A stretch of 64,000 nucleotides of DNA, from positions 129,135 to 193,134 of the forward strand of contig CAYSYA010000002.1 of assembly GCA_964435285.1 (NCBI GenBank). The letters run 5' to 3'. How positions within the stretch are numbered: position 1 is the stretch's first letter; each line of letters opens with the position of its first letter. Origin of the DNA: an uncultured Flavobacteriales bacterium (lineage in GTDB: Bacteria > Bacteroidota > Bacteroidia > Flavobacteriales > TMED113). Shown in pieces: positions 2,362 through 58,944 of the stretch. Position numbers and translations under genes: made by a program. The notes under the pieces are model-generated. The model was not told where the DNA came from. It was given only the letters and a program-made list of their open reading frames with translations, and did not search any database.

Positions 2362-2949
2362 ATGTGTAAATTTATATTATTTTTAATATTTCCATTAATT
2401 ACTTTATCTCAATATTTAAATTACGATTATTCAGTTACATTTGGTAATCATGTTATAGCGATTAATGAAATTAATTATGATTTTCAAGAGGGTGATATTT
2501 TAGGTTGTTTTTTTGTTAACGTTAATGGACAATTGCAGTGCTGTGGTTCAACAATTTATAACAATGAAAAAGTTACTTACATTTCTGCATGGCCTGATGA
2601 TTTTTTAACTGATTATCAAGAAGGTTTTATAGATGGAGATGAATTGATAATTGGTATGTATTTATGCGATAATTATGACTATATGTCTTCATCTTTCAAT
2701 TCTTTAAATTCTGATTTTTCAGTAATTCACTCTGAAGTTTTTTATGTTGCAAATGGAATAAGTCAAATTAATATTGATTTGTTATCTTCTCCAGATTGTA
2801 ACATTTCATTACAAGAAAAAAATATTAATAGAAAAATGACAGGATTTGTTGATATTTTAGGTCAGTTAACAGATAGGGGTAGGGCTAAAAATTTATATTT
2901 TATTTTATATGATGATGGTAGTGTTGAAAAAAAGTTTATTAATAGATAA
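2362..2949 (+). CDS. Secreted hypothetical protein with short CTD-like tail
   Basis: Signal-peptide-like N terminus (LIFPLITLS-Q); acidic Cys-containing core; C-terminal VDILG...YDDGSVEKK tail shared with two other ORFs in the window. Confidence 0.75.
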   Translation: MCKFILFLIFPLITLSQYLNYDYSVTFGNHVIAINEINYDFQEGDILGCFFVNVNGQLQCCGSTIYNNEKVTYISAWPDDFLTDYQEGFIDGDELIIGMYLCDNYDYMSSSFNSLNSDFSVIHSEVFYVANGISQINIDLLSSPDCNISLQEKNINRKMTGFVDILGQLTDRGRAKNLYFILYDDGSVEKKFINR

Positions 2950-19172: not shown

Positions 19173-22100
19173 ATGTTTATCAAAAAAATACTACTATTTC
19201 TCTTTTTTAGCTTATATATTTCATCTCAAAATAATGATGAAATAACTAATGCAATTCAAATATTTTGTGGTGATAATATAACATCTTCTACAGTCAATAA
19301 CAATTCAGATCAAGAATATTTGACATCTGTTGGTTTAAATGAATGTGGGACGACAGTGAATGAATCGTCAGGAGTTTGGTACATGATTTATGGTGATGGT
19401 CAAGAAATGGAATTAAGTATGTGTGAATCTTCTTATGATACAAAATTACATGTATTTAAAGATGATGGATTTAACTTAACGTGTGTAACTGGAAATGATG
19501 ACTCTGATTGCGAAAATTATTTACATTCAAAAGTCACTTTTTCATCTGAAGAAAATATAGTTTATTATGTATATGTTAGTGGATGGGGATCTTATGAAGG
19601 TAATTTCAATCTAAATCTTTCATGTTCATTTTTGGTAAATGGGTGTATGGATGAAGAAGCATGTAACTATGACCCTTTAGCCACTGATGATAATGATTCT
19701 TGTACTTATCCAAATGAATGTGATAATTGTGATGATGAATTATTTTGTGTTGGTTGTACTGACGTTTCTGCTATTAACTTTGAAACAGATAATGTTATTG
19801 AAGATGGATCTTGTGAATATTCGACAGTTTGTGCTGAAAACCAAGATTTAGTTTTTCTTTCACTTGTTTTCGGAAATTGGACTAGTGAAATTACATGGGA
19901 TATACAAAACGAAAATGGAGAAATAATTGCTAATAGTCCTCCACTGAATTCTTGGTATCAAGACTATGAGACTTATGGTCAATATCTATGTTTAAATGTT
20001 AATGAAACTTACTCTTTCAACTCATATGACACTTACGGGGATGGGTGGAATGGCGGTCTTTATACAATTAGCCAGTGTGATCTAGCTGTTGTTTTAGCCA
20101 ATAATAACGGAGAAGTTCCTCCAGGTTACGGAATAACTGAAGAATTCATGATGACTTCAGTTGATTGTAATTCATACGGTTGCACCAACCCTGATGCTTG
20201 TAATTATGATGCTACTGCTTTAATAGATTATGGTTGTGTTTTTTCTGATGAAATTATTGATTGCGATGGGAATTGTTACAATGATTTAAATCAAAATGGT
20301 ATATGTGACGAGAATGATATTTTTGGCTGTATGGATGACAGTGTTTCTAATTATAATCCTGAGGCAACTTTTGATAATGGTACTTGTTTATATGATGTTC
20401 AGTGCTCAAATACAGAAATTCAAATAGATGTTTTACTATCTACTGACAATTACCCCTGGGAAACTTCATTTATTTTAAATGATAATGGGGGAGTCGTTTG
20501 GGCTAATGAAGATGATGTTTTTTCAAGTGTTTATTCTGATTATTTATTTCAGTATTGTCTTCCTGTAGAGGGTTGCTATATTTTTACCGTTTATGATAGT
20601 TATGGAGATGGAATTTTTGACTCAGGAGGTCTACAAGTTTTCTATGAAAATGATTTAGTTTTAGAAAATCCTGATTTTTCTAATGAAGCATCTATAACAA
20701 TGAATTGCCCGCCAGGATACGATTGTAATACTGCCATTGAGGTGGAGTTAGGGGCATATCAAACATTATCTGACGATTTTTGGTACGTTTTTTCACCCAC
20801 TCAAAATGGACAGTATGAAATTAATACTTGTCAATCTGAATGTAATACTATTATTTATGTTTATGACTATTGTACAGGATTGTTACCAACTGAATCAAAT
20901 GATGCAACAATATATTATAACGATGATGAATGCGGCTTACAATCTCAAGTAAATCCTTTGTTTGCTGAAGGTGAATCTTATTACATAAGAATAAATGGAG
21001 ATTGTTCTGAGATTGATTGGGAAATCTCTTATGTTGGTCCTGTTGAAGGATGTATGGATCCAGCAGCTTGTAATTTTAACCCAATTGCTGAAGTCGATGA
21101 TGGTAATTGTTTATACCCTGGAGATCCTGATTGCACAAGTGGTCCAGACTTAGCAGTTTTGCCATTTGAAGATTCAATGTATTTAGAGGTTTATGAAAAT
21201 AATGATGGTTGCGCTATAGACGAAGGGTGTTTGAATGGTTATGGTACAAGATATCTTGTTAGATTTACCACATGGATTAAAAATATCGGTGATGAAGATT
21301 ATTTTATTGGTTCTGTGAATGATAATGAAGAAACTAATCAATTTGAATGGGATGAATGTCACAATCATTGGCATTATAAAGGATATGCAGAATACGTATT
21401 ATTTGATACTGAAGGACAATTAATCCCAGTTGGATTTAAAAATGGTTTTTGTGTAATGGATTTAGAATGTAGCGATGGAGGAACTGCTCAATATGGTTGT
21501 AGTATAATGGGTATTTCAGCAGGATGTGGAGATATTTATGGTGCGGGTTTATCTTGTCAATGGATTGATATAACTACTGTTCCAGATGGTGATTACACTA
21601 TGGTTGTAAGAACAAATTGGGATCAAGATCCTGATGCGCTAGGGAATGTTGAACTTACTTATGAAAATAACTGGATGCAAACATGTATAAGGGTAATTAC
21701 TTTAGAAGATGGTTCAAAAAATTATGTTCTTTCTACTGATTTAGATAATGATGGAATTGATAATATTAATGATCCAGATATTGATGGAGACGGTATACTG
21801 AATGGTGATGATGATGATATTGATGGAAATGGAATTCTAAATGATATTGATGATAATCCTTTTGGTTTGAGTGATTGTCCTTCATATACAGATTGTAACG
21901 GAGAAGAATTTGGTAACGCTCAATTAGATTGCAATGGTGTTTGTGGAGGGGAGGCTACAACAGGAGATTTGAATTTTGATGGTTTTATTGATGTTAATGA
22001 TGGACAAGAATACATTAATCAGATTATAAATAATGATATAACTCCAACAAATTGTACTGATTTAGACTCAGATGGTGAAATTACTGTTTCTGATATAGGT

Positions 22101-22871
22101 TTACTTGTAAATTGTATAAATAACTTTAGTACCATCACAAGAGATAACCAATCAGAACCTTGTCAATATGGTTTAGAAGTCACTAATCCAAATGATACTG
22201 TCTCTTTTGATATTTATGATTGGAATTTAGAAGAGGCTTATGTTGATATAAGTATTCAAAATCCAAACAATGAAGTATTAGGTTATCAATTTAAATTAGG
22301 TAATGAAGGAGTTATAATAACTGATGTTGAAAATTTAATTTCTGAGAATGATTATCCTATTACACCATCTTTTTCTGTTTATGACAATATGATTTTAGGT
22401 GTTTCATTACAAGATAGCTTAATTCAAAAAAATTATGATCCTGTTCCACTTTGTAGAGTATATTATTCATTACCTTTGGGGGTAAATATTGATGGTGATA
22501 ATTTTATATGTATTGAAGAAATAATCGATGTTGTTAATCAAGATTATGAAAATGTTATTTCTGTAAATAACACTGATGAATGTGAGCCATTCAATCAGTT
22601 TAATATTAACGAATTTGAAGGAATAACTAGTTTTGTTCTTTATCCTAATCCAACTTCAGATATTTTATATTTCAATATTTCCTTTGAAGAGAAAAAAGAA
22701 TTTGTTCTGTCTATATATGATTTAGTTGGTAATTTAATTTCGACTAAAAGTTATAATGCTAAGGATATTTCACAAGAGCTAGATTTTACATCACTTTCAA
22801 TGGGAATATATAACTTGACTGTTGACTATGAAAATGGTTTTATTAATAAAAAAATAGTTATTAAGAAATAG
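19173..22871 (+). CDS. T9SS-secreted multidomain protein with lysyl oxidase domain, Cys-rich repeats, TSP3-like and dockerin-like repeats and type A CTD
   Basis: Signal peptide; LOX motifs WDECHNHWHY, GFKNGFC, GCGDIY, CQWIDIT; five GC(T/M)x repeats; CTD LYPNPTSD...IYDLVG...GIY...KKIVI. Confidence 0.88.
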   Translation: MFIKKILLFLFFSLYISSQNNDEITNAIQIFCGDNITSSTVNNNSDQEYLTSVGLNECGTTVNESSGVWYMIYGDGQEMELSMCESSYDTKLHVFKDDGFNLTCVTGNDDSDCENYLHSKVTFSSEENIVYYVYVSGWGSYEGNFNLNLSCSFLVNGCMDEEACNYDPLATDDNDSCTYPNECDNCDDELFCVGCTDVSAINFETDNVIEDGSCEYSTVCAENQDLVFLSLVFGNWTSEITWDIQNENGEIIANSPPLNSWYQDYETYGQYLCLNVNETYSFNSYDTYGDGWNGGLYTISQCDLAVVLANNNGEVPPGYGITEEFMMTSVDCNSYGCTNPDACNYDATALIDYGCVFSDEIIDCDGNCYNDLNQNGICDENDIFGCMDDSVSNYNPEATFDNGTCLYDVQCSNTEIQIDVLLSTDNYPWETSFILNDNGGVVWANEDDVFSSVYSDYLFQYCLPVEGCYIFTVYDSYGDGIFDSGGLQVFYENDLVLENPDFSNEASITMNCPPGYDCNTAIEVELGAYQTLSDDFWYVFSPTQNGQYEINTCQSECNTIIYVYDYCTGLLPTESNDATIYYNDDECGLQSQVNPLFAEGESYYIRINGDCSEIDWEISYVGPVEGCMDPAACNFNPIAEVDDGNCLYPGDPDCTSGPDLAVLPFEDSMYLEVYENNDGCAIDEGCLNGYGTRYLVRFTTWIKNIGDEDYFIGSVNDNEETNQFEWDECHNHWHYKGYAEYVLFDTEGQLIPVGFKNGFCVMDLECSDGGTAQYGCSIMGISAGCGDIYGAGLSCQWIDITTVPDGDYTMVVRTNWDQDPDALGNVELTYENNWMQTCIRVITLEDGSKNYVLSTDLDNDGIDNINDPDIDGDGILNGDDDDIDGNGILNDIDDNPFGLSDCPSYTDCNGEEFGNAQLDCNGVCGGEATTGDLNFDGFIDVNDGQEYINQIINNDITPTNCTDLDSDGEITVSDIGLLVNCINNFSTITRDNQSEPCQYGLEVTNPNDTVSFDIYDWNLEEAYVDISIQNPNNEVLGYQFKLGNEGVIITDVENLISENDYPITPSFSVYDNMILGVSLQDSLIQKNYDPVPLCRVYYSLPLGVNIDGDNFICIEEIIDVVNQDYENVISVNNTDECEPFNQFNINEFEGITSFVLYPNPTSDILYFNISFEEKKEFVLSIYDLVGNLISTKSYNAKDISQELDFTSLSMGIYNLTVDYENGFINKKIVIKK

Positions 22872-45858: not shown

Positions 45859-48171
45859 ATGAAGAGTTTTATTTTTTTATCATTTTTTTACTCATTTTTT
45901 TTATTTTCTCAAAACCTACCAAGTCAGTACTATTTTTCTGAGGATGGAAATAGATTAATAAGAGGAGGATTGGATTTAGGTGGTTTTTATAATCAATCAG
46001 AAATAAAAACCATTTACTTATACTTTGATCAACCAAATTTTTGGGACATTCTACACAATAATTACTGTGATAAAATTAATATTCCCGCAACTTTGATTTA
46101 TGATGGACAAACATATGAAAATGTTGGTGTAAGATTTAAAGGACAAACTTCATATGCAAATACAAATGGTTCTCAAAATGGTGGTGGTCCTGGAGGAGGA
46201 GGTCCTGGAGGTAATAATGTTGATACAGATAAAAAGTCATTTAATATTGAGCTTGATTGGCAAACAAATCAAAATATTAACGGTTATGAAACATTAAACT
46301 TAAATAATTGCTACCAAGATCCTAGTTTTTTAAGAGAATTTATTTTTTCAAAATTATCTAGAAATTATATTCCATCTGTTCAAGTAAACTTCCTAAAATT
46401 AATGATTAACGATGAGGACTGGGGTATTTATCCAAACATTCAACAATTAGATAAAAAACATGCTGGGGAGTGGTTTTTTGATGATGAGTGCACTAGATGG
46501 AGAGCTGAAAACCCTAATAGTGAGGCTCCTGGTTGTGGGGATTCTTTTACAGGGGGAGGTCCTGGGGGAGGAGGTCCTGGAGGAGGAGGCCCTGGAGGAG
46601 GGGGTCCAAATTTTGGAGCAGGCACATCTTCTCTAAATTTTCTTGGAATTGATACTTCTTACTACTTAGAGCATTATAATTTAAAAAAGTCATACAAAAA
46701 TGATCCTTGGCAAGATTTAGTAAATGCTTGTATAGCTATTGAAAATGTTGAAAATTATGAAGACCAGTATAATGATATTAACGAACATTTTGATTTAGAT
46801 GCGGCTTTATGGCATTTAGCTGTCGAAATTATATTTTCAGATGATGACAGTTATATAAACAAAGGAGGAATGGATTATTATGTTTATTTCGATAAATTTA
46901 ATAACAGGATATTACCAATTGAATATGATGGAAATACAGTTTTTGGTAATATTAATTGGAGTCCATTTTATAATGAAAATAACTCCGATTTTGCTCTTTT
47001 AAATAAATTGTTAGCTATACCAGAATTTAGACAAAGGTATTTAGCTCACTTTAGAACTATTTTAAATCAATGTTTTGAGGAAAATTATATTAATAATTTA
47101 ATTGATTATTATGCTGAATTCATTAATCAAAGTGTTTATGATGATCCTAAAAAGATATATTCTTATGTTAATTTTCTAAATGAAGTAGAAGAATTAAAAG
47201 AATATTTTCAAGAAAGAAAATCTTATTTATTATCAAATGATGAGGTCAATCAGGAATCGGTAGAATTTGAAAGTGTGGTTTACTCGGTTAATGGTGTTAA
47301 TTTTTCTCAACCAAGTTCTTTAGATGAAACTTTAGTTTCAGTAATTTTAGATTCTCCAGATTTAGTAGATCAAGTAAATTTATATTACGGTTCTGGTTTT
47401 ACAGGTCATTTTGAAAAAGTGCAAATGGAAAATAATTTGAATTATTATTTTTACAATATTCCTGCTCATGACCCTGGTCAATATGTTAGATTCTACATAG
47501 AAATAATTGATAAAAATGGTGTTAGGAAATATAATCCCGAAGGCGCTGAACATGATGTATATATATATCAAGTAAAAATGAACCAAGATTTGTTTAGTGA
47601 TATTGTTATTAATGAGATTATGGCTTCTAATGATTTTACTGCTGTTGATGAATTTGGAGAATTTGATGATTGGATTGAGATTTATAATAAAGGAAATGAG
47701 TCAATAAATTTGTCAGGTTATTTTCTATCTGATGATCTTAATAATTTAACAAAATATACTTTTCCAGACGTTATTTTAGACCCCGATCAATATTTCATTG
47801 TTTGGGCGGATGATGATGAAGAAGATCAAGGAGATTATAATCATGCTACATTTAAATTATCTGCCTCTGGAGAATCAGTATATTTATCTGATGAAAATCT
47901 AAATTTAATTGATAATTGTGTGTTTGGTGAGCAACAAACAGACCAAGGTTTTGCACGTGTACCTAACGGATTTGGAGATTTTGTTATTCAAGCTCCTTCA
48001 TTTAATTATAATAATGATTTAATATCATCAACTTTGGACGGCTCTAATAATCAAAAAAAACTTATAAAAGTTATTGATATTTTAGGTAAAGAATTAACTA
48101 AGAATATTGATGGAATTCAAATTGAAATTTTTAATGATAATACTGCTGTAAAAAAGTTTAAATTAAGATAA
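45859..48171 (+). CDS. Secreted CotH kinase with GPGGG insertions, lamin-tail domain and short CTD-like tail
   Basis: Signal peptide; VGVRFKGQTS, KKSFNI, LNLNN, FLRE; LTD VINEIMASN...DWIEIYN...LSGYFLSDD; tail LIKVIDILGKE. Confidence 0.88.
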   Translation: MKSFIFLSFFYSFFLFSQNLPSQYYFSEDGNRLIRGGLDLGGFYNQSEIKTIYLYFDQPNFWDILHNNYCDKINIPATLIYDGQTYENVGVRFKGQTSYANTNGSQNGGGPGGGGPGGNNVDTDKKSFNIELDWQTNQNINGYETLNLNNCYQDPSFLREFIFSKLSRNYIPSVQVNFLKLMINDEDWGIYPNIQQLDKKHAGEWFFDDECTRWRAENPNSEAPGCGDSFTGGGPGGGGPGGGGPGGGGPNFGAGTSSLNFLGIDTSYYLEHYNLKKSYKNDPWQDLVNACIAIENVENYEDQYNDINEHFDLDAALWHLAVEIIFSDDDSYINKGGMDYYVYFDKFNNRILPIEYDGNTVFGNINWSPFYNENNSDFALLNKLLAIPEFRQRYLAHFRTILNQCFEENYINNLIDYYAEFINQSVYDDPKKIYSYVNFLNEVEELKEYFQERKSYLLSNDEVNQESVEFESVVYSVNGVNFSQPSSLDETLVSVILDSPDLVDQVNLYYGSGFTGHFEKVQMENNLNYYFYNIPAHDPGQYVRFYIEIIDKNGVRKYNPEGAEHDVYIYQVKMNQDLFSDIVINEIMASNDFTAVDEFGEFDDWIEIYNKGNESINLSGYFLSDDLNNLTKYTFPDVILDPDQYFIVWADDDEEDQGDYNHATFKLSASGESVYLSDENLNLIDNCVFGEQQTDQGFARVPNGFGDFVIQAPSFNYNNDLISSTLDGSNNQKKLIKVIDILGKELTKNIDGIQIEIFNDNTAVKKFKLR
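46180..46212 (+). repeat. 15-bp tandem repeat encoding (GGGP)/GPGGG, block 1
   Basis: ggtggtggtcctggaggaggaggtcctggaggt. Confidence 0.85.
46552..46608 (+). repeat. 15-bp tandem repeat encoding GPGGG x3 plus a final GP, block 2
   Basis: gggggaggt cctgggggaggaggt cctggaggaggaggc cctggaggagggggt cca; locally very GC-rich in an AT-rich genome. Confidence 0.9.
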
Positions 48172-56740: not shown

Positions 56741-56748
56741 TATCTTTG
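56741..56748 (+). promoter_or_regulatory. -7 promoter element (TATCTTTG)
   Basis: Exact TAnnTTTG match that overlaps the track's TTG start, favouring ATG at 56773. Confidence 0.5.
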
Positions 56749-56772
56749 TTTGAACGAATCTCTTTTGTCTCT

Positions 56773-58944
56773 ATGAAAAAAATTATATTTCTATTAACAT
56801 ATCCTTTTATTTTATTTTCTCAAGTTAACTTTAGTGAAGATATTTCATCAATTATATATAATAATTGTACTGAATGCCATAGGCCGGGACAATCAGGTCC
56901 AATGCCATTTACTAATTATTTAGAGGTAGCTGCTTTTGGAAACATGATTAATTATGTAACTGCTATTGATTACATGCCTCCTTGGCATGCTGATACAGAA
57001 TATTCTTCTTTTCTTGGAGAAAGAGGTTTAACAGATGATGAAAAAAATTTAATTAACGAATGGGTTACTAACGGAATGCCTCAAGGTGATCCTTTACTTG
57101 AAGCACAGATTCCAAATTTCCCAGAGGGTTCTGCAATTGGTACACCTGATGCTGTTTTCACAATGGAGGAAGAATATTTGATTGAAGGAAATAATCAAGA
57201 TGATTATAGAGTTTTTGTTTTTGAAACAAATTTTCCTGAAGATAAATATTTAAAATCTATTGAGATTATTCCTGGTAATTATGCTGCTGTTCATCATGTT
57301 TTAATCAATATTGATGATGGTGCATGCGCGGCAATTGATGCTACTACTCCTGAATATGGTTATGAGTGTGAAAGTGGTTTTTGTACAGGTGAAATTCCTC
57401 AGATATCAGCTGGATATACTCCGGGAATGGTTCCCCCAGTTTGGAATAATGATGTTGGGATGTTACTTCCTGCAGGTGCAGATATATCTATTCAAATGCA
57501 TTATGCCCCAAGTCCTATAGACCAATATGATCAATCTACAGTTAATTTATTTTTTAAAGAACAACCTGTTTTAAGAGAAATACAAGTAGAAACAATTGTT
57601 GATACTCAATTATTTATTCCAGCCAATGAATTATATGAACACTATGTTTCTTTTGAAATAGAGGAAGATATTAGTTTAATTAGTATTCTACCTCACATGC
57701 ATTTAATTGGTAAGTCATGGCTTGTTTATGCAGAAAATAATGGAGATACAATTCCAATTATAAGTATTCCAGAATGGGATTTTAACTGGCAAAGTTTTTA
57801 TCAACCTGAATATATGTTAAAATTACCTCAGGGATACACTCTTCATGCTTATGCTACTTATGATAATACTGCTAATAATCCACTAAACCCTAATTCACCA
57901 CCTCAAAATATGTATTGGTGCGATTATACAACTTGTGAAATGTTTTTTCTTCCATTTGCCTATGTTGAGTATCAAGAAGGAGATGAAAATATATACCTAG
58001 GAAACAGCGAAGATTTAGGATGTACTGATTTAAATGCTTGCAATTATAATCCAAATGCAATAATTGATGATGGTAGTTGTGGAATATCAGATGATTGTGG
58101 AGAATGTTTTGTTCCATGTTGTTATAATTTTGAAACTGAAACATGTGATCAAACAGTAAGTCAACAAGACTGTGAATATTTTTGGGCTGATTATAGTATA
58201 ATTTCTGATCCAGAACAAAATATATTTTGGAATTTGAGTTGTAATTCAGGTTGTACAGATCCTTTAGCTTGTAACTATGATTCAACAATTTTACCTGGTG
58301 GTTTTGACGATGGTTCATGTGTTTTTGTTGATGGTATATGCGATACATGTGAAAATGGTGTTGTAATTGATAATGATGCTGATAATGATGGAATCTGCAA
58401 TGGTGATGAATTAGAAGGCTGTACAGACCCTCTAGCTTGTAATTACAATGAATTTGTAACAAATGATGATGGAAGTTGTGAATATGCTCCAGAGTTTTAT
58501 GACTGTGAAGGTAACTGTTTACAAGACTTGGATGAAGATGGAATTTGTGATGAATGTAATAGTTTTGAAAATATGGTTGTTGATTGTGAATGTGAATTTT
58601 TAGATCCGGCTACCTACACTGTATTTTTTACAAATGTCATTGAAAGTGATTGTATTTTAATTGAAGATTGTTATTGTGAATGTATTAGTGATTTAGATGA
58701 AGATGATATTTGTGATGAAAATGACAATTGCCCTGATGAGTATAATCCAAATCAAGAAGATTCAAACGATGATGGAATAGGTGATGCGTGTGACCAAACT
58801 AGTTTGAATGAAAATATCAGTAATAGAAAATTAATTAAAGTTGTTGATATTCTTGGAAGAGAAGTTAGGGAATTAAATAAATATACTCTTTTATTTTATG
58901 TTTATGATAACGGAGAAATTATTCCAAATTACATCATCAAATAA
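56773..58944 (+). CDS. Secreted CxxCH + copper type II (PHM/DBH-like) monooxygenase with Cys-rich repeats and short CTD-like tail
   Basis: Start moved to ATG 56773 (MKKIIFLL signal peptide); CTECH; VHHVL, QMHY, PHMH, CEM copper ligands; three GCTD repeats; TSP3-like DxDxDG motifs. Confidence 0.85.
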   Translation: MKKIIFLLTYPFILFSQVNFSEDISSIIYNNCTECHRPGQSGPMPFTNYLEVAAFGNMINYVTAIDYMPPWHADTEYSSFLGERGLTDDEKNLINEWVTNGMPQGDPLLEAQIPNFPEGSAIGTPDAVFTMEEEYLIEGNNQDDYRVFVFETNFPEDKYLKSIEIIPGNYAAVHHVLINIDDGACAAIDATTPEYGYECESGFCTGEIPQISAGYTPGMVPPVWNNDVGMLLPAGADISIQMHYAPSPIDQYDQSTVNLFFKEQPVLREIQVETIVDTQLFIPANELYEHYVSFEIEEDISLISILPHMHLIGKSWLVYAENNGDTIPIISIPEWDFNWQSFYQPEYMLKLPQGYTLHAYATYDNTANNPLNPNSPPQNMYWCDYTTCEMFFLPFAYVEYQEGDENIYLGNSEDLGCTDLNACNYNPNAIIDDGSCGISDDCGECFVPCCYNFETETCDQTVSQQDCEYFWADYSIISDPEQNIFWNLSCNSGCTDPLACNYDSTILPGGFDDGSCVFVDGICDTCENGVVIDNDADNDGICNGDELEGCTDPLACNYNEFVTNDDGSCEYAPEFYDCEGNCLQDLDEDGICDECNSFENMVVDCECEFLDPATYTVFFTNVIESDCILIEDCYCECISDLDEDDICDENDNCPDEYNPNQEDSNDDGIGDACDQTSLNENISNRKLIKVVDILGREVRELNKYTLLFYVYDNGEIIPNYIIK

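Follow-up and report, generated by a model that had tools for sequence, protein, structure and literature searches.

Why do three otherwise unrelated, apparently exported proteins of an uncultured Flavobacteriales bacterium end in the same short tail, and what might such a tail be for? The question is raised by a 64,000-nucleotide stretch of DNA (contig CAYSYA010000002.1, positions 129,135 to 193,134; here called the window), in which a first-pass annotation picked out three recurrent C-terminal tails and proposed that they represent a minimal subtype of T9SS CTD. Reviews describe T9SS CTDs of three types, A, B, and C (PMC10202324). Here, we follow the three tails, which we call mini-tails, through the host genome, its relatives, and sequence databases. 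The original observation is confirmed, and the phenomenon proves to be much larger than three tails.

Three tails in the window

The tails lie exactly where they were first noticed (Table 1). Their translations read SLQEKNINRKMTGFVDILGQLTDRGRAKNLYFILYDDGSVEKKFINR, TLDGSNNQKKLIKVIDILGKELTKNIDGIQIEIFNDNTAVKKFKLR, and SLNENISNRKLIKVVDILGREVRELNKYTLLFYVYDNGEIIPNYIIK, that is, 46–47 residues, each followed by a stop codon. The three cargo proteins are otherwise unrelated, and each begins with a signal-peptide-like N-terminus; open reading frames and translations therefore bear out the claim that three unrelated signal-peptide proteins share one tail. The same holds for two other genes in the window to which a full, YPNP-containing type A CTD had been ascribed: both carry one according to TIGR04183. 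The window contains exactly three mini-tails, and a fourth lies just outside it on the same contig. At the DNA level, the three tails are only ~60% identical, which argues for conservation of the protein rather than for a recent DNA repeat. A repeated DNA element as the source of the tails was rejected on this ground. A chance or compositional origin was likewise rejected, in this case by the HMM score gap and the database counts described below.

Table 1. Mini-tails, their cargo genes, and two long CTDs for contrast, in window positions (C2 denotes positions on the contig that contains the window)
Feature	Position	Strand	Properties and evidence
Cargo gene 1	2362..2949	+	195 aa, exported-type protein; HMM member, 60.2 bits, match stops 1 residue short of the C-terminus; no Pfam or NCBIfam family match
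Mini-tail 1	2806..2949	+	47 aa and stop codon; SLQE boundary motif; putative strand 1 with motif B (FVDILGQ), strand 2 (LYFILY), DDG turn, strand 3 with motif E (VEKKFI); translation and column statistics
Cargo gene 2	45859..48171	+	770 aa, CotH kinase and lamin-tail-domain (LTD) protein; PF08757 (5e-38), PF00932 (9e-20); without PF18962
Flexible linker of cargo gene 2	47926..48051	+	Residues 690-731, from LTD to tail; pLDDT <50 (AF2 full-length model); holds boundary motif SSTLDG
Mini-tail 2	48031..48171	+	46 aa and stop codon; translation
Predicted strands of mini-tail 2	48061-48075, 48112-48132, 48145-48162		DSSP, residues 735-739, 752-758, 763-768
Cargo gene 3	56746..58944	+	732 aa, cytochrome-c/PHM-like copper monooxygenase with TSP3-like repeats; weak PF13442 and PF03712 matches
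Mini-tail 3	58801..58944	+	47 aa and stop codon; translation
Predicted strands of mini-tail 3	58831-58845 (LIKVV), 58885-58905 (TLLFYVY), 58918-58935 (IIPNYI)		AF2, 35-tail alignment
Long type A CTD (YPNP), contrast	22638..22865 (C2:151772-151999)	+	In 1,232-aa protein at 19173-22871; TIGR04183 42.6 bits, profile positions 1-72
Long type A CTD (YPNP), contrast	40129..40341 (C2:169263-169475)	+	In 825-aa protein at 37882-40359; TIGR04183 44.6 bits

A tail family across the genome

The host genome spans 1.57 Mb at 28% GC in 18 contigs. An HMM built from the three window tails was searched against all genome ORFs of at least 60 aa and then iterated. The starting HMM retrieves 34 ORFs at E<1e-3, and all of its matches stop 0–9 residues from the stop codon. 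The iterated HMM has 35 members scoring 43.6–66.3 bits, with the next best ORF at 9.3 bits, and in 35 of 35 members the match comes within 0–7 residues of the C-terminus. A six-frame search of the genome counts 38 copies. The mini-tail genes are scattered through the genome. Carrying such an HMM through the genome and its relatives had been suggested at the outset, and the scan yields, beyond these 35 ORFs, copies in further genomes, to which we return below.

Signal-peptide-like N-termini occur on 35 of 35 mini-tail proteins: 32 by a simple hydrophobicity rule, two more by eye, and the remaining one in a gene that an assembly gap (a run of N) interrupts, its signal peptide lying upstream. The first-pass annotation had held that tails on cytoplasmic proteins lacking a signal peptide would speak against its reading; no such protein is among the 35. 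Mini-tail signal peptides typically end in ...FSQ, with the Gln nearly invariant. The cargo are typical secreted proteins. Specifically, they include PHB-type esterases, M43 and S9 peptidases, two CotH kinases, Kunitz and PKD proteins, a Porphyromonas-type peptidyl-arginine deiminase (PAD_porph), and others.

A tail that standard models miss

The suspicion that standard CTD HMMs overlook the tail proves right. None of TIGR04183, TIGR04131, NF033708, PF18962, and PF13585 matches any of the three full window proteins at E<=10. When the window tails were scored with TIGR04183 and PF18962, none rose above the curated cut-offs of 23 and 27 bits, respectively; the best isolated tail reaches 13.2 bits (E 0.066) against TIGR04183. 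Genome-wide, there are 42 TIGR04183 matches, none of them within a mini-tail ORF. Ordinary long type A CTDs account for 39 ORFs over the TIGR04183 cut-off, including the two contrast genes of the window and again no mini-tail ORF, and neither PF18962 nor TIGR04183 matches any of the 35 mini-tail ORFs. In precomputed annotation, the Pfam field of mini-tail orthologs reads "-".

The consequence for annotation is considerable. In the host genome, 35 of 74 CTD-type cargo escape both TIGR04183 and PF18962, and about half of the apparent T9SS-exported proteins end in the ~47-residue, three-strand tail. Across 15 genomes of the family, the mini-tail share is ~49%, and the shortfall touches 4,613 protein clusters or more. 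For an ocean lineage that is abundant but uncultured, predicted T9SS secretomes are accordingly too small by about half, and many mini-tail proteins are labeled "hypothetical". A dedicated mini-tail HMM would repair this gap.

Sequence and predicted structure of the mini-tail

Counted from the Ser of the boundary motif, mini-tails have a median length of 47 aa (range 44–55), compared with ~89 aa for long tails. The consensus begins ..S-x-(I/L)-(E/N)-E-N..(K/R)K-L-I-K-x-(I/V)-(D/N)-(I/L)-L-G-(R/K/Q)-E.. and, after a loop, continues (G-F-Y)-I-x-I-Y-(D/N)-D-G-S-V-E-K-K-(Y/F)-x-x-x. A single Gly never varies, and another Gly and a Lys hardly do. The strand with D-x-x-G is here named motif B, following the Veith nomenclature: the Gly is present in 35 of 35 tails, preceded at -3 by D/N in 35 of 35 and followed by R/K/Q in 33 of 35. 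The Gly of motif D (G-x-Y) is confined to the subgroup of mini-tails with a short loop and is missing from the long-loop subgroup. Motif E places a K/R at -4 to -7 from the end in 91% of mini-tails and 79% of long tails, compared with 53% of other proteins, and K/R at 5–6 residues from the end is enriched in both tail classes. Upstream, the boundary motif (S/T)-x-(I/L)-(E/D/N)-(E/D/N), a putative cleavage-site motif, stands ~9 residues ahead of strand 1 in 54% of mini-tails; in this genome it is found in 48% of long tails and in 7% of random 9-mers. The PNP motif is absent from mini-tails. The initial description of the tail as lacking YPNP and the first strands, yet keeping a D-x-x-G-(R/K) strand and a terminal strand, which is basic, is supported.

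AF2, run with the 35-tail alignment, predicts three strands (residues 12–16, 30–36, and 41–46) at a mean pLDDT of 80.5. Modeling of the tail alone had been named in the first-pass annotation as a check, and it gives these three beta-strands. In the AF2 model of the full-length CotH protein, the tail again has three predicted strands, here following a 42-residue linker with pLDDT <50; this model is poor overall (mean pLDDT 59), and only its linker and tail region was used. The seven-strand, Ig-like beta-sandwich of the type A CTD is not what AF2 gives for the mini-tail. A Foldseek comparison of the mini-tail model with 350,542 PDB chains returns no statistically significant match. The top two ranks, at E 0.6–0.8, are the CTDs of RemA and RemZ in the SprA–PorV translocon (8gl6_D and 8gl8_D). 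That translocon-bound CTDs head the list is suggestive at most.

Mini-tails and long CTDs replace each other at the same junction

In two ortholog families, the mini-tail replaces a long CTD at the same junction. The first is the CotH/LTD family, in which the 32 closest orthologs (57–100% identity, ~757–787 aa) have the mini-tail and lack PF18962, whereas orthologs one tier further out (<=56% identity) carry PF18962 from that junction on. Both tail types begin a few residues past a conserved PTFNxNN segment. The second is the PHM-like family. Here, protein P0271 is 91% identical to the window protein at 56746-58944 and matches it up to ...DGIGDACD. After the shared GIGDACD, P0271 continues as GIGLEENEFEWNIYPNP..., a long YPNP CTD with PF18962, whereas the window protein and P0272–P0281 continue as QTSLNENISNRKLIKVVDILGRE..., the mini-tail. 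Such long/short swaps between near-identical orthologs are natural, ready-made test pairs.

Alignments of the swap pairs show what the two tails have in common. Boundary motif, D-x-x-G strand, and final hairpin are present in both; the YPNP strands and the strand 4–5 segment, ~40 residues in all, are missing from the mini-tail. Comparison of the mini-tails with the host's own long CTDs by hhalign gives E 5e-4 and a probability of 30% over the motif B (D-x-x-G) region, and 10% in global mode. From the ortholog alignments and hhalign together, strand 1 is equated with the D-x-x-G strand of the long CTD, and strands 2 and 3 with its final hairpin. Since sequence similarity to long CTDs is weak, we argue common descent mainly from positional equivalence and the swaps.

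Distribution in relatives and databases

Of 40 relatives, the 15 that belong to the host's own family all have mini-tails, with 12–43 copies each. Four further families of the order have 5–46 copies per genome, and a fifth is represented by one genome with a single copy. The complete 2.1 Mb genome GCA_965183885.1 (OZ238992.1; our G034) has 46. Mini-tails are found mainly in genomes of 0.8–2.3 Mb, and the 17 of 40 relatives with zero mini-tails are mostly larger genomes. Named relatives, retrieved with the CotH protein as query, are uncultured marine "Flavobacteriales bacterium" MAGs. Long CTDs are present in 23 of 23 related mini-tail genomes, at 19–64 each. Over the 15 family genomes together, mini-tails (410) and long CTDs (422) are nearly balanced, in counts obtained with differing search thresholds.

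Searched against 1.84 billion cluster representatives, the 35-tail profile matches 4,613 at E<=1e-3 and 835 at E<=1e-10. Among the best 150 of the 4,613 matches, all but a few reach to within a few residues of the C-terminus. In a phylum sample of 300 high-quality genomes, by comparison, matches beyond a few Flavobacteriales families are limited to single copies in four genomes. This sequence distribution suggests that the mini-tail profile does not match Bacteroidales tails.

A proposed route and its alternatives

The genome encodes T9SS parts, namely SprA (2,680 bits), PorU (1,207), PorV (487), and PorQ (298), all well above their curated cut-offs. The PorV gene lies at C4:98062-99363. Taking sequence, models, and analogy together, we consider it likely that the mini-tail is a short sorting signal of three strands, akin to type A, and that it takes the usual SprA–PorV–PorU route. 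The Sec signal peptide would take the cargo to the periplasm, where it would fold, and a flexible linker would then present the ~47-residue tail. The tail comprises the boundary motif S-x-(I/L)-(E/D/N)-(E/D/N); a strand 1 closing in motif B, (I/V)(D/N)(I/L)LG(R/K/Q); a short loop; a strand 2, (G-F-Y)-I-x-I-Y, with a D-G turn; and a strand 3 with the basic motif E, V-E-K-K-(Y/F). The three predicted strands match strands 3, 6, and 7 of the seven-strand long CTD, the sheet with the motifs reported to face PorV. Because the mini-tail keeps this sheet, it is expected to dock in the SprA pore on PorV loops, as a long CTD does. Outward transport of the cargo would then fall to PorV, and cleavage of the linker, at or close to the boundary motif, to the PorU sortase. 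That the mini-tail proteins leave through the T9SS, bind PorV, and are cut by PorU is an inference, as is what then becomes of them, whether release or anchoring. The suggestion that the tails might be left uncleaved finds no support: the boundary motif is common to mini-tails and long tails, and PorU is encoded.

Structural work bears on this proposal. Lauber et al. 2024 identify a near-invariant Lys close to the C-terminus as the only conserved CTD residue that contacts PorV, and they argue that the SprA/PorV pocket recognizes the size and shape of the seven-strand sandwich (PMC10994853). That a lone three-strand sheet would fill that pocket is not obvious, and this counts against what we regard as the best explanation. 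So do the weak sequence similarity to long CTDs, a structural match to solved CTDs that falls short of significance, and the loss of the motif D Gly in the long-loop subgroup.

Could the tail instead act outside the cell, as a small module that, for instance, attaches to the surface, binds LPS or glycans, or mediates oligomerization, on proteins that cross or reach the outer membrane by another route? We judge this unlikely. Two points speak for this reading: no curated CTD model recognizes the tail, and it is too small to form a stable domain by itself. The tail is, however, always the last 44–55 residues and never internal; it takes the place of a long CTD, one for one, at a common junction, in one case between proteins 91% identical; it has the boundary motif and the basic C-terminal motif in common with long tails; and the 35 otherwise ordinary secreted enzymes show no other secretion signal. 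The tails might also be decayed remnants of long CTDs in a reducing genome, functionless or partly functional. Although mini-tails occur mainly in small genomes (0.8–2.3 Mb) and resemble long CTDs weakly, as decay would have it, we regard this as extremely improbable. Conservation is strong, with its invariant Gly and near-invariant Gly and Lys, and extends over 4,613 cluster representatives, 835 of them at E<=1e-10. Mini-tails make up about half of all CTD-like tails in 15 genomes of the family and sit on conserved enzymes, and independent decay would not converge on one exact 47-residue architecture.

A different carrier is the remaining alternative. The first-pass annotation raised the possibility of a distinct PorV-like shuttle, and a candidate exists: the genome encodes a third PorV/PorQ-family protein (L025, at C4:117928-118977; PorV_fam 159 bits) that is neither PorV, PorQ, nor PorV2. 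By analogy with type B CTDs and PorP/SprF, mini-tails could use this paralog rather than PorV. Orthologs of L025 occur in 18 of 23 mini-tail genomes versus 4 of 17 without mini-tails (Fisher p = 0.001, uncorrected for phylogeny), or 6 of 6 versus 4 of 12 when counted by family. Yet in 9 of 9 paralog genomes checked, L025 adjoins an ortholog of L028, a 1,370-aa protein with a CTD-like end of its own; four of these nine genomes are without any mini-tail, and L025 and L028 are missing together from three other genomes. This synteny and joint absence point to a dedicated two-gene unit rather than a general shuttle. Moreover, there are zero mini-tail genes on the L025 contig and none linked to the L025/L028 pair, and the short CTDs of Prevotella have been modeled on ordinary PorV (PMC11969387). 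The co-occurrence of L025 with mini-tails is most simply phylogenetic. A separate shuttle is thus disfavored, the sole extra PorV/PorQ paralog being tied to L028 and not to mini-tail genes, and we hold this alternative to be very unlikely. The ordinary SprA–PorV–PorU route remains our preferred reading.

Comparison with known systems

Type B CTDs are ~100 to >200 aa long, need PorP/SprF partners encoded beside the cargo, and are probably not cleaved. Type B (TIGR04131/PF13585) and type C (ChiA-type, NF033708) CTDs resemble the mini-tail in being C-terminal T9SS signals beside type A, but the mini-tail has no sequence match to either at E<=10. Unlike type B genes, moreover, mini-tail genes are scattered, and none adjoins the extra PorV-family gene.

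The likeness to the long type A CTD is closer (TIGR04183/PF18962; RgpB, PorZ, and RemA/RemZ in SprA–PorV, 8gl6 and 8gl8). Both elements form the C-terminus of Sec-exported cargo, with the same upstream boundary motif, D-x-x-G strand, and basic residue 5–6 from the end; orthologs carry one or the other at a common junction, and both are found where SprA, PorV, and PorU are encoded. The mini-tail differs in lacking strands 1–2 (YPNP) and 4–5, ~40 residues fewer, in its predicted three-strand sheet in place of a seven-strand sandwich, and in scoring under the model cut-offs. A related case is Hbp35 of Porphyromonas gingivalis, which, as cited by Ye et al., has a five-strand CTD whose last 22 residues are enough for GFP secretion (PMC11969387). 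Hbp35 resembles the mini-tail in that a much reduced C-terminal element with motifs D and E can drive T9SS export; there, it is an engineered truncation of one protein, whereas here it is a natural, genome-wide tail class.

The closest precedent lies in the oral genus Prevotella. Short type A CTDs of Prevotella intermedia were reportedly noted by Veith et al. in 2013. More recently, Ye et al. 2025 (Open Biol) described 48 "short" CTDs of 43–55 aa in P. intermedia, each predicted as one sheet whose three strands match strands 3, 6, and 7 of the long form, with motifs B, D, and E retained (PMC11969387). Their cleavage falls at a PT/GI-type site within a flexible linker, they are glycosylated, AF3 models seat them on PorV exactly as long CTDs, and they were called unique to P. 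intermedia (PMC11969387). Our full-text literature search found no report of short CTDs in Flavobacteriales.

Judged by the published description, the two are alike in many respects. Lengths are 44–55 aa here (median 47) and 43–55 aa there; AF2 predicts the same single sheet of strands 3, 6, and 7 here; and both have motif B (Gly plus a basic residue) and motif E (basic, often doubled). In P. intermedia, a cleavage-site motif with a conserved Ile lies in a flexible linker, 6–11 residues before motif B; here, an Ile/Leu-centered boundary motif, a candidate counterpart, stands a few residues ahead of motif B in a linker predicted to be flexible. Short and long CTDs coexist in both (here 35 and 39), and tail length has no obvious tie to cargo function. 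The differences begin with the host, an uncultured open-ocean member of the Flavobacteriales as opposed to the Bacteroidales. The mini-tail is a distinct sequence family, near-silent elsewhere in the 300-genome phylum sample, and TIGR04183 and PF18962 miss it, whereas most of the Prevotella tails are found by long-CTD HMMs. In the mini-tail, the Tyr of motif B is replaced by Ile/Val-Asp, and the Gly of motif D occurs in a subgroup only. Finally, cleavage and glycosylation are shown for P. intermedia, and the mini-tail is known from sequence and models.

The first-pass idea of a minimal T9SS CTD subtype therefore stands in part: the tail behaves as a minimal, type A-like signal would, but the concept is not new, given the P. 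intermedia precedent (PMC11969387). The mini-tail is the published short-CTD architecture in another order, in a sequence family missed by the curated models. What is new is a second, sequence-distinct, and very large short-CTD family in ocean Flavobacteriales, invisible to standard models and with long/short swaps between near-identical orthologs. A second family with the same three-strand layout supports strands 3, 6, and 7, with motifs B and E, as the functional core, and an export tag of 45 residues would be of use in engineering surface display or secretion in Bacteroidota. We speculate, tentatively and with more doubt than conviction, that marine Flavobacteriales and oral Prevotella, from two unrelated orders, independently trimmed the seven-strand type A CTD to strands 3, 6, and 7, the natural minimum for SprA–PorV and PorU, and that tail length is a sorting code. 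If so, tail length would decide, in genomes that have both forms about equally, what becomes of a cargo, for instance whether it is released into seawater or stays attached to the cell surface.

Organization of mini-tail genes

Contig C8, outside the window, bears a run of five successive genes on one strand, each of which ends in the mini-tail, the predicted T9SS sorting tail of about 47 residues. Stop and start codons overlap among four of the five, and the run resembles an operon that encodes esterase-like cargo. Eight further mini-tail genes lie on contig C3.

Directly upstream of the mini-tail, at least six cargo proteins carry calcium-binding repeats of a thrombospondin-type-3-like form (DNCPxxYNPxQxDxDxDGIGDxCD). 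P0271, a 91% identical ortholog of the window's cytochrome-c/PHM-like protein, has the same repeat followed by the long type A C-terminal domain (CTD). Other orthologs have a Kunitz domain at this position instead of the repeats.

Features of mini-tail cargo and of other putative T9SS substrates and carriers (C3, C4, C7, C8, and C9 are contigs of the same genome)
Feature	Location	Remark
Signal-peptide N-termini, examples	window 2362-2415, 45859-45915, 56773-56823	
Thrombospondin-type-3-like repeats before mini-tail	window 58690-58800	also at the matching place in five or more further mini-tail proteins
Five-gene mini-tail run	C8:77729-86618	outside window
Four of these genes, stop/start codons overlapping	C8 81225-82277, 82274-83662, 83659-85662, 85659-86618	
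Eight further mini-tail genes	C3:8020-55760	
L025 + L028 pair	C4:117928-123112	outside window
Giant proteins	C8:56023-73845, C7:17555-25372, C4:207-4988	1,593-3,631 aa
Interrupted cupredoxin/FAS1-like gene	C9 ~19,900-20,100	run of N

Other tails and a possible carrier

Giant proteins from three regions, on contigs C4, C7, and C8, share the C-terminal end ...G-x-Y-Y-Y-x-(I/L)...(I/V)-x-(I/V)-K-R. Judged by sequence, these ends look like type B (gliding-associated) CTDs and, therefore, T9SS tails of three kinds are probably present in the genome.

The genome also encodes a third PorV/PorQ-family outer-membrane protein, L025 (349 aa), distinct from PorV, PorQ, and PorV2. Its gene adjoins, as a conserved pair, that of L028, a 1,370-aa exported protein in which a CTD-like domain is followed by approximately 21 additional residues with the end ...IDLNTF. 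Synteny of the pair is kept in nine genomes from eight families of the order; as a pair, the genes are missing from three others. L025 and L028 may constitute a dedicated cargo-carrier unit.

Two small, nearly complete genomes of the same order, G025 (1.6 Mb) and G028 (1.9 Mb), contain no mini-tails. Thus, small genome size alone does not predict the mini-tail. TIGR04183 matches number zero in G025 and one in G028; loss of all T9SS cargo from these lineages is possible.

Signal peptides

One mini-tail ORF, of 98 aa, lacks a signal peptide because an assembly gap splits its gene: the ORF is the 3' piece of an exported cupredoxin/FAS1-like gene on contig C9. Across the 35 mini-tail proteins, signal peptides finish in ...FSQ, with the Gln nearly invariant though the cargo is unrelated. 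Exported proteins of Porphyromonas carry pyroglutamate N-termini, and an N-terminal Gln following signal-peptidase cleavage, as predicted for mini-tail cargo, recalls that arrangement.
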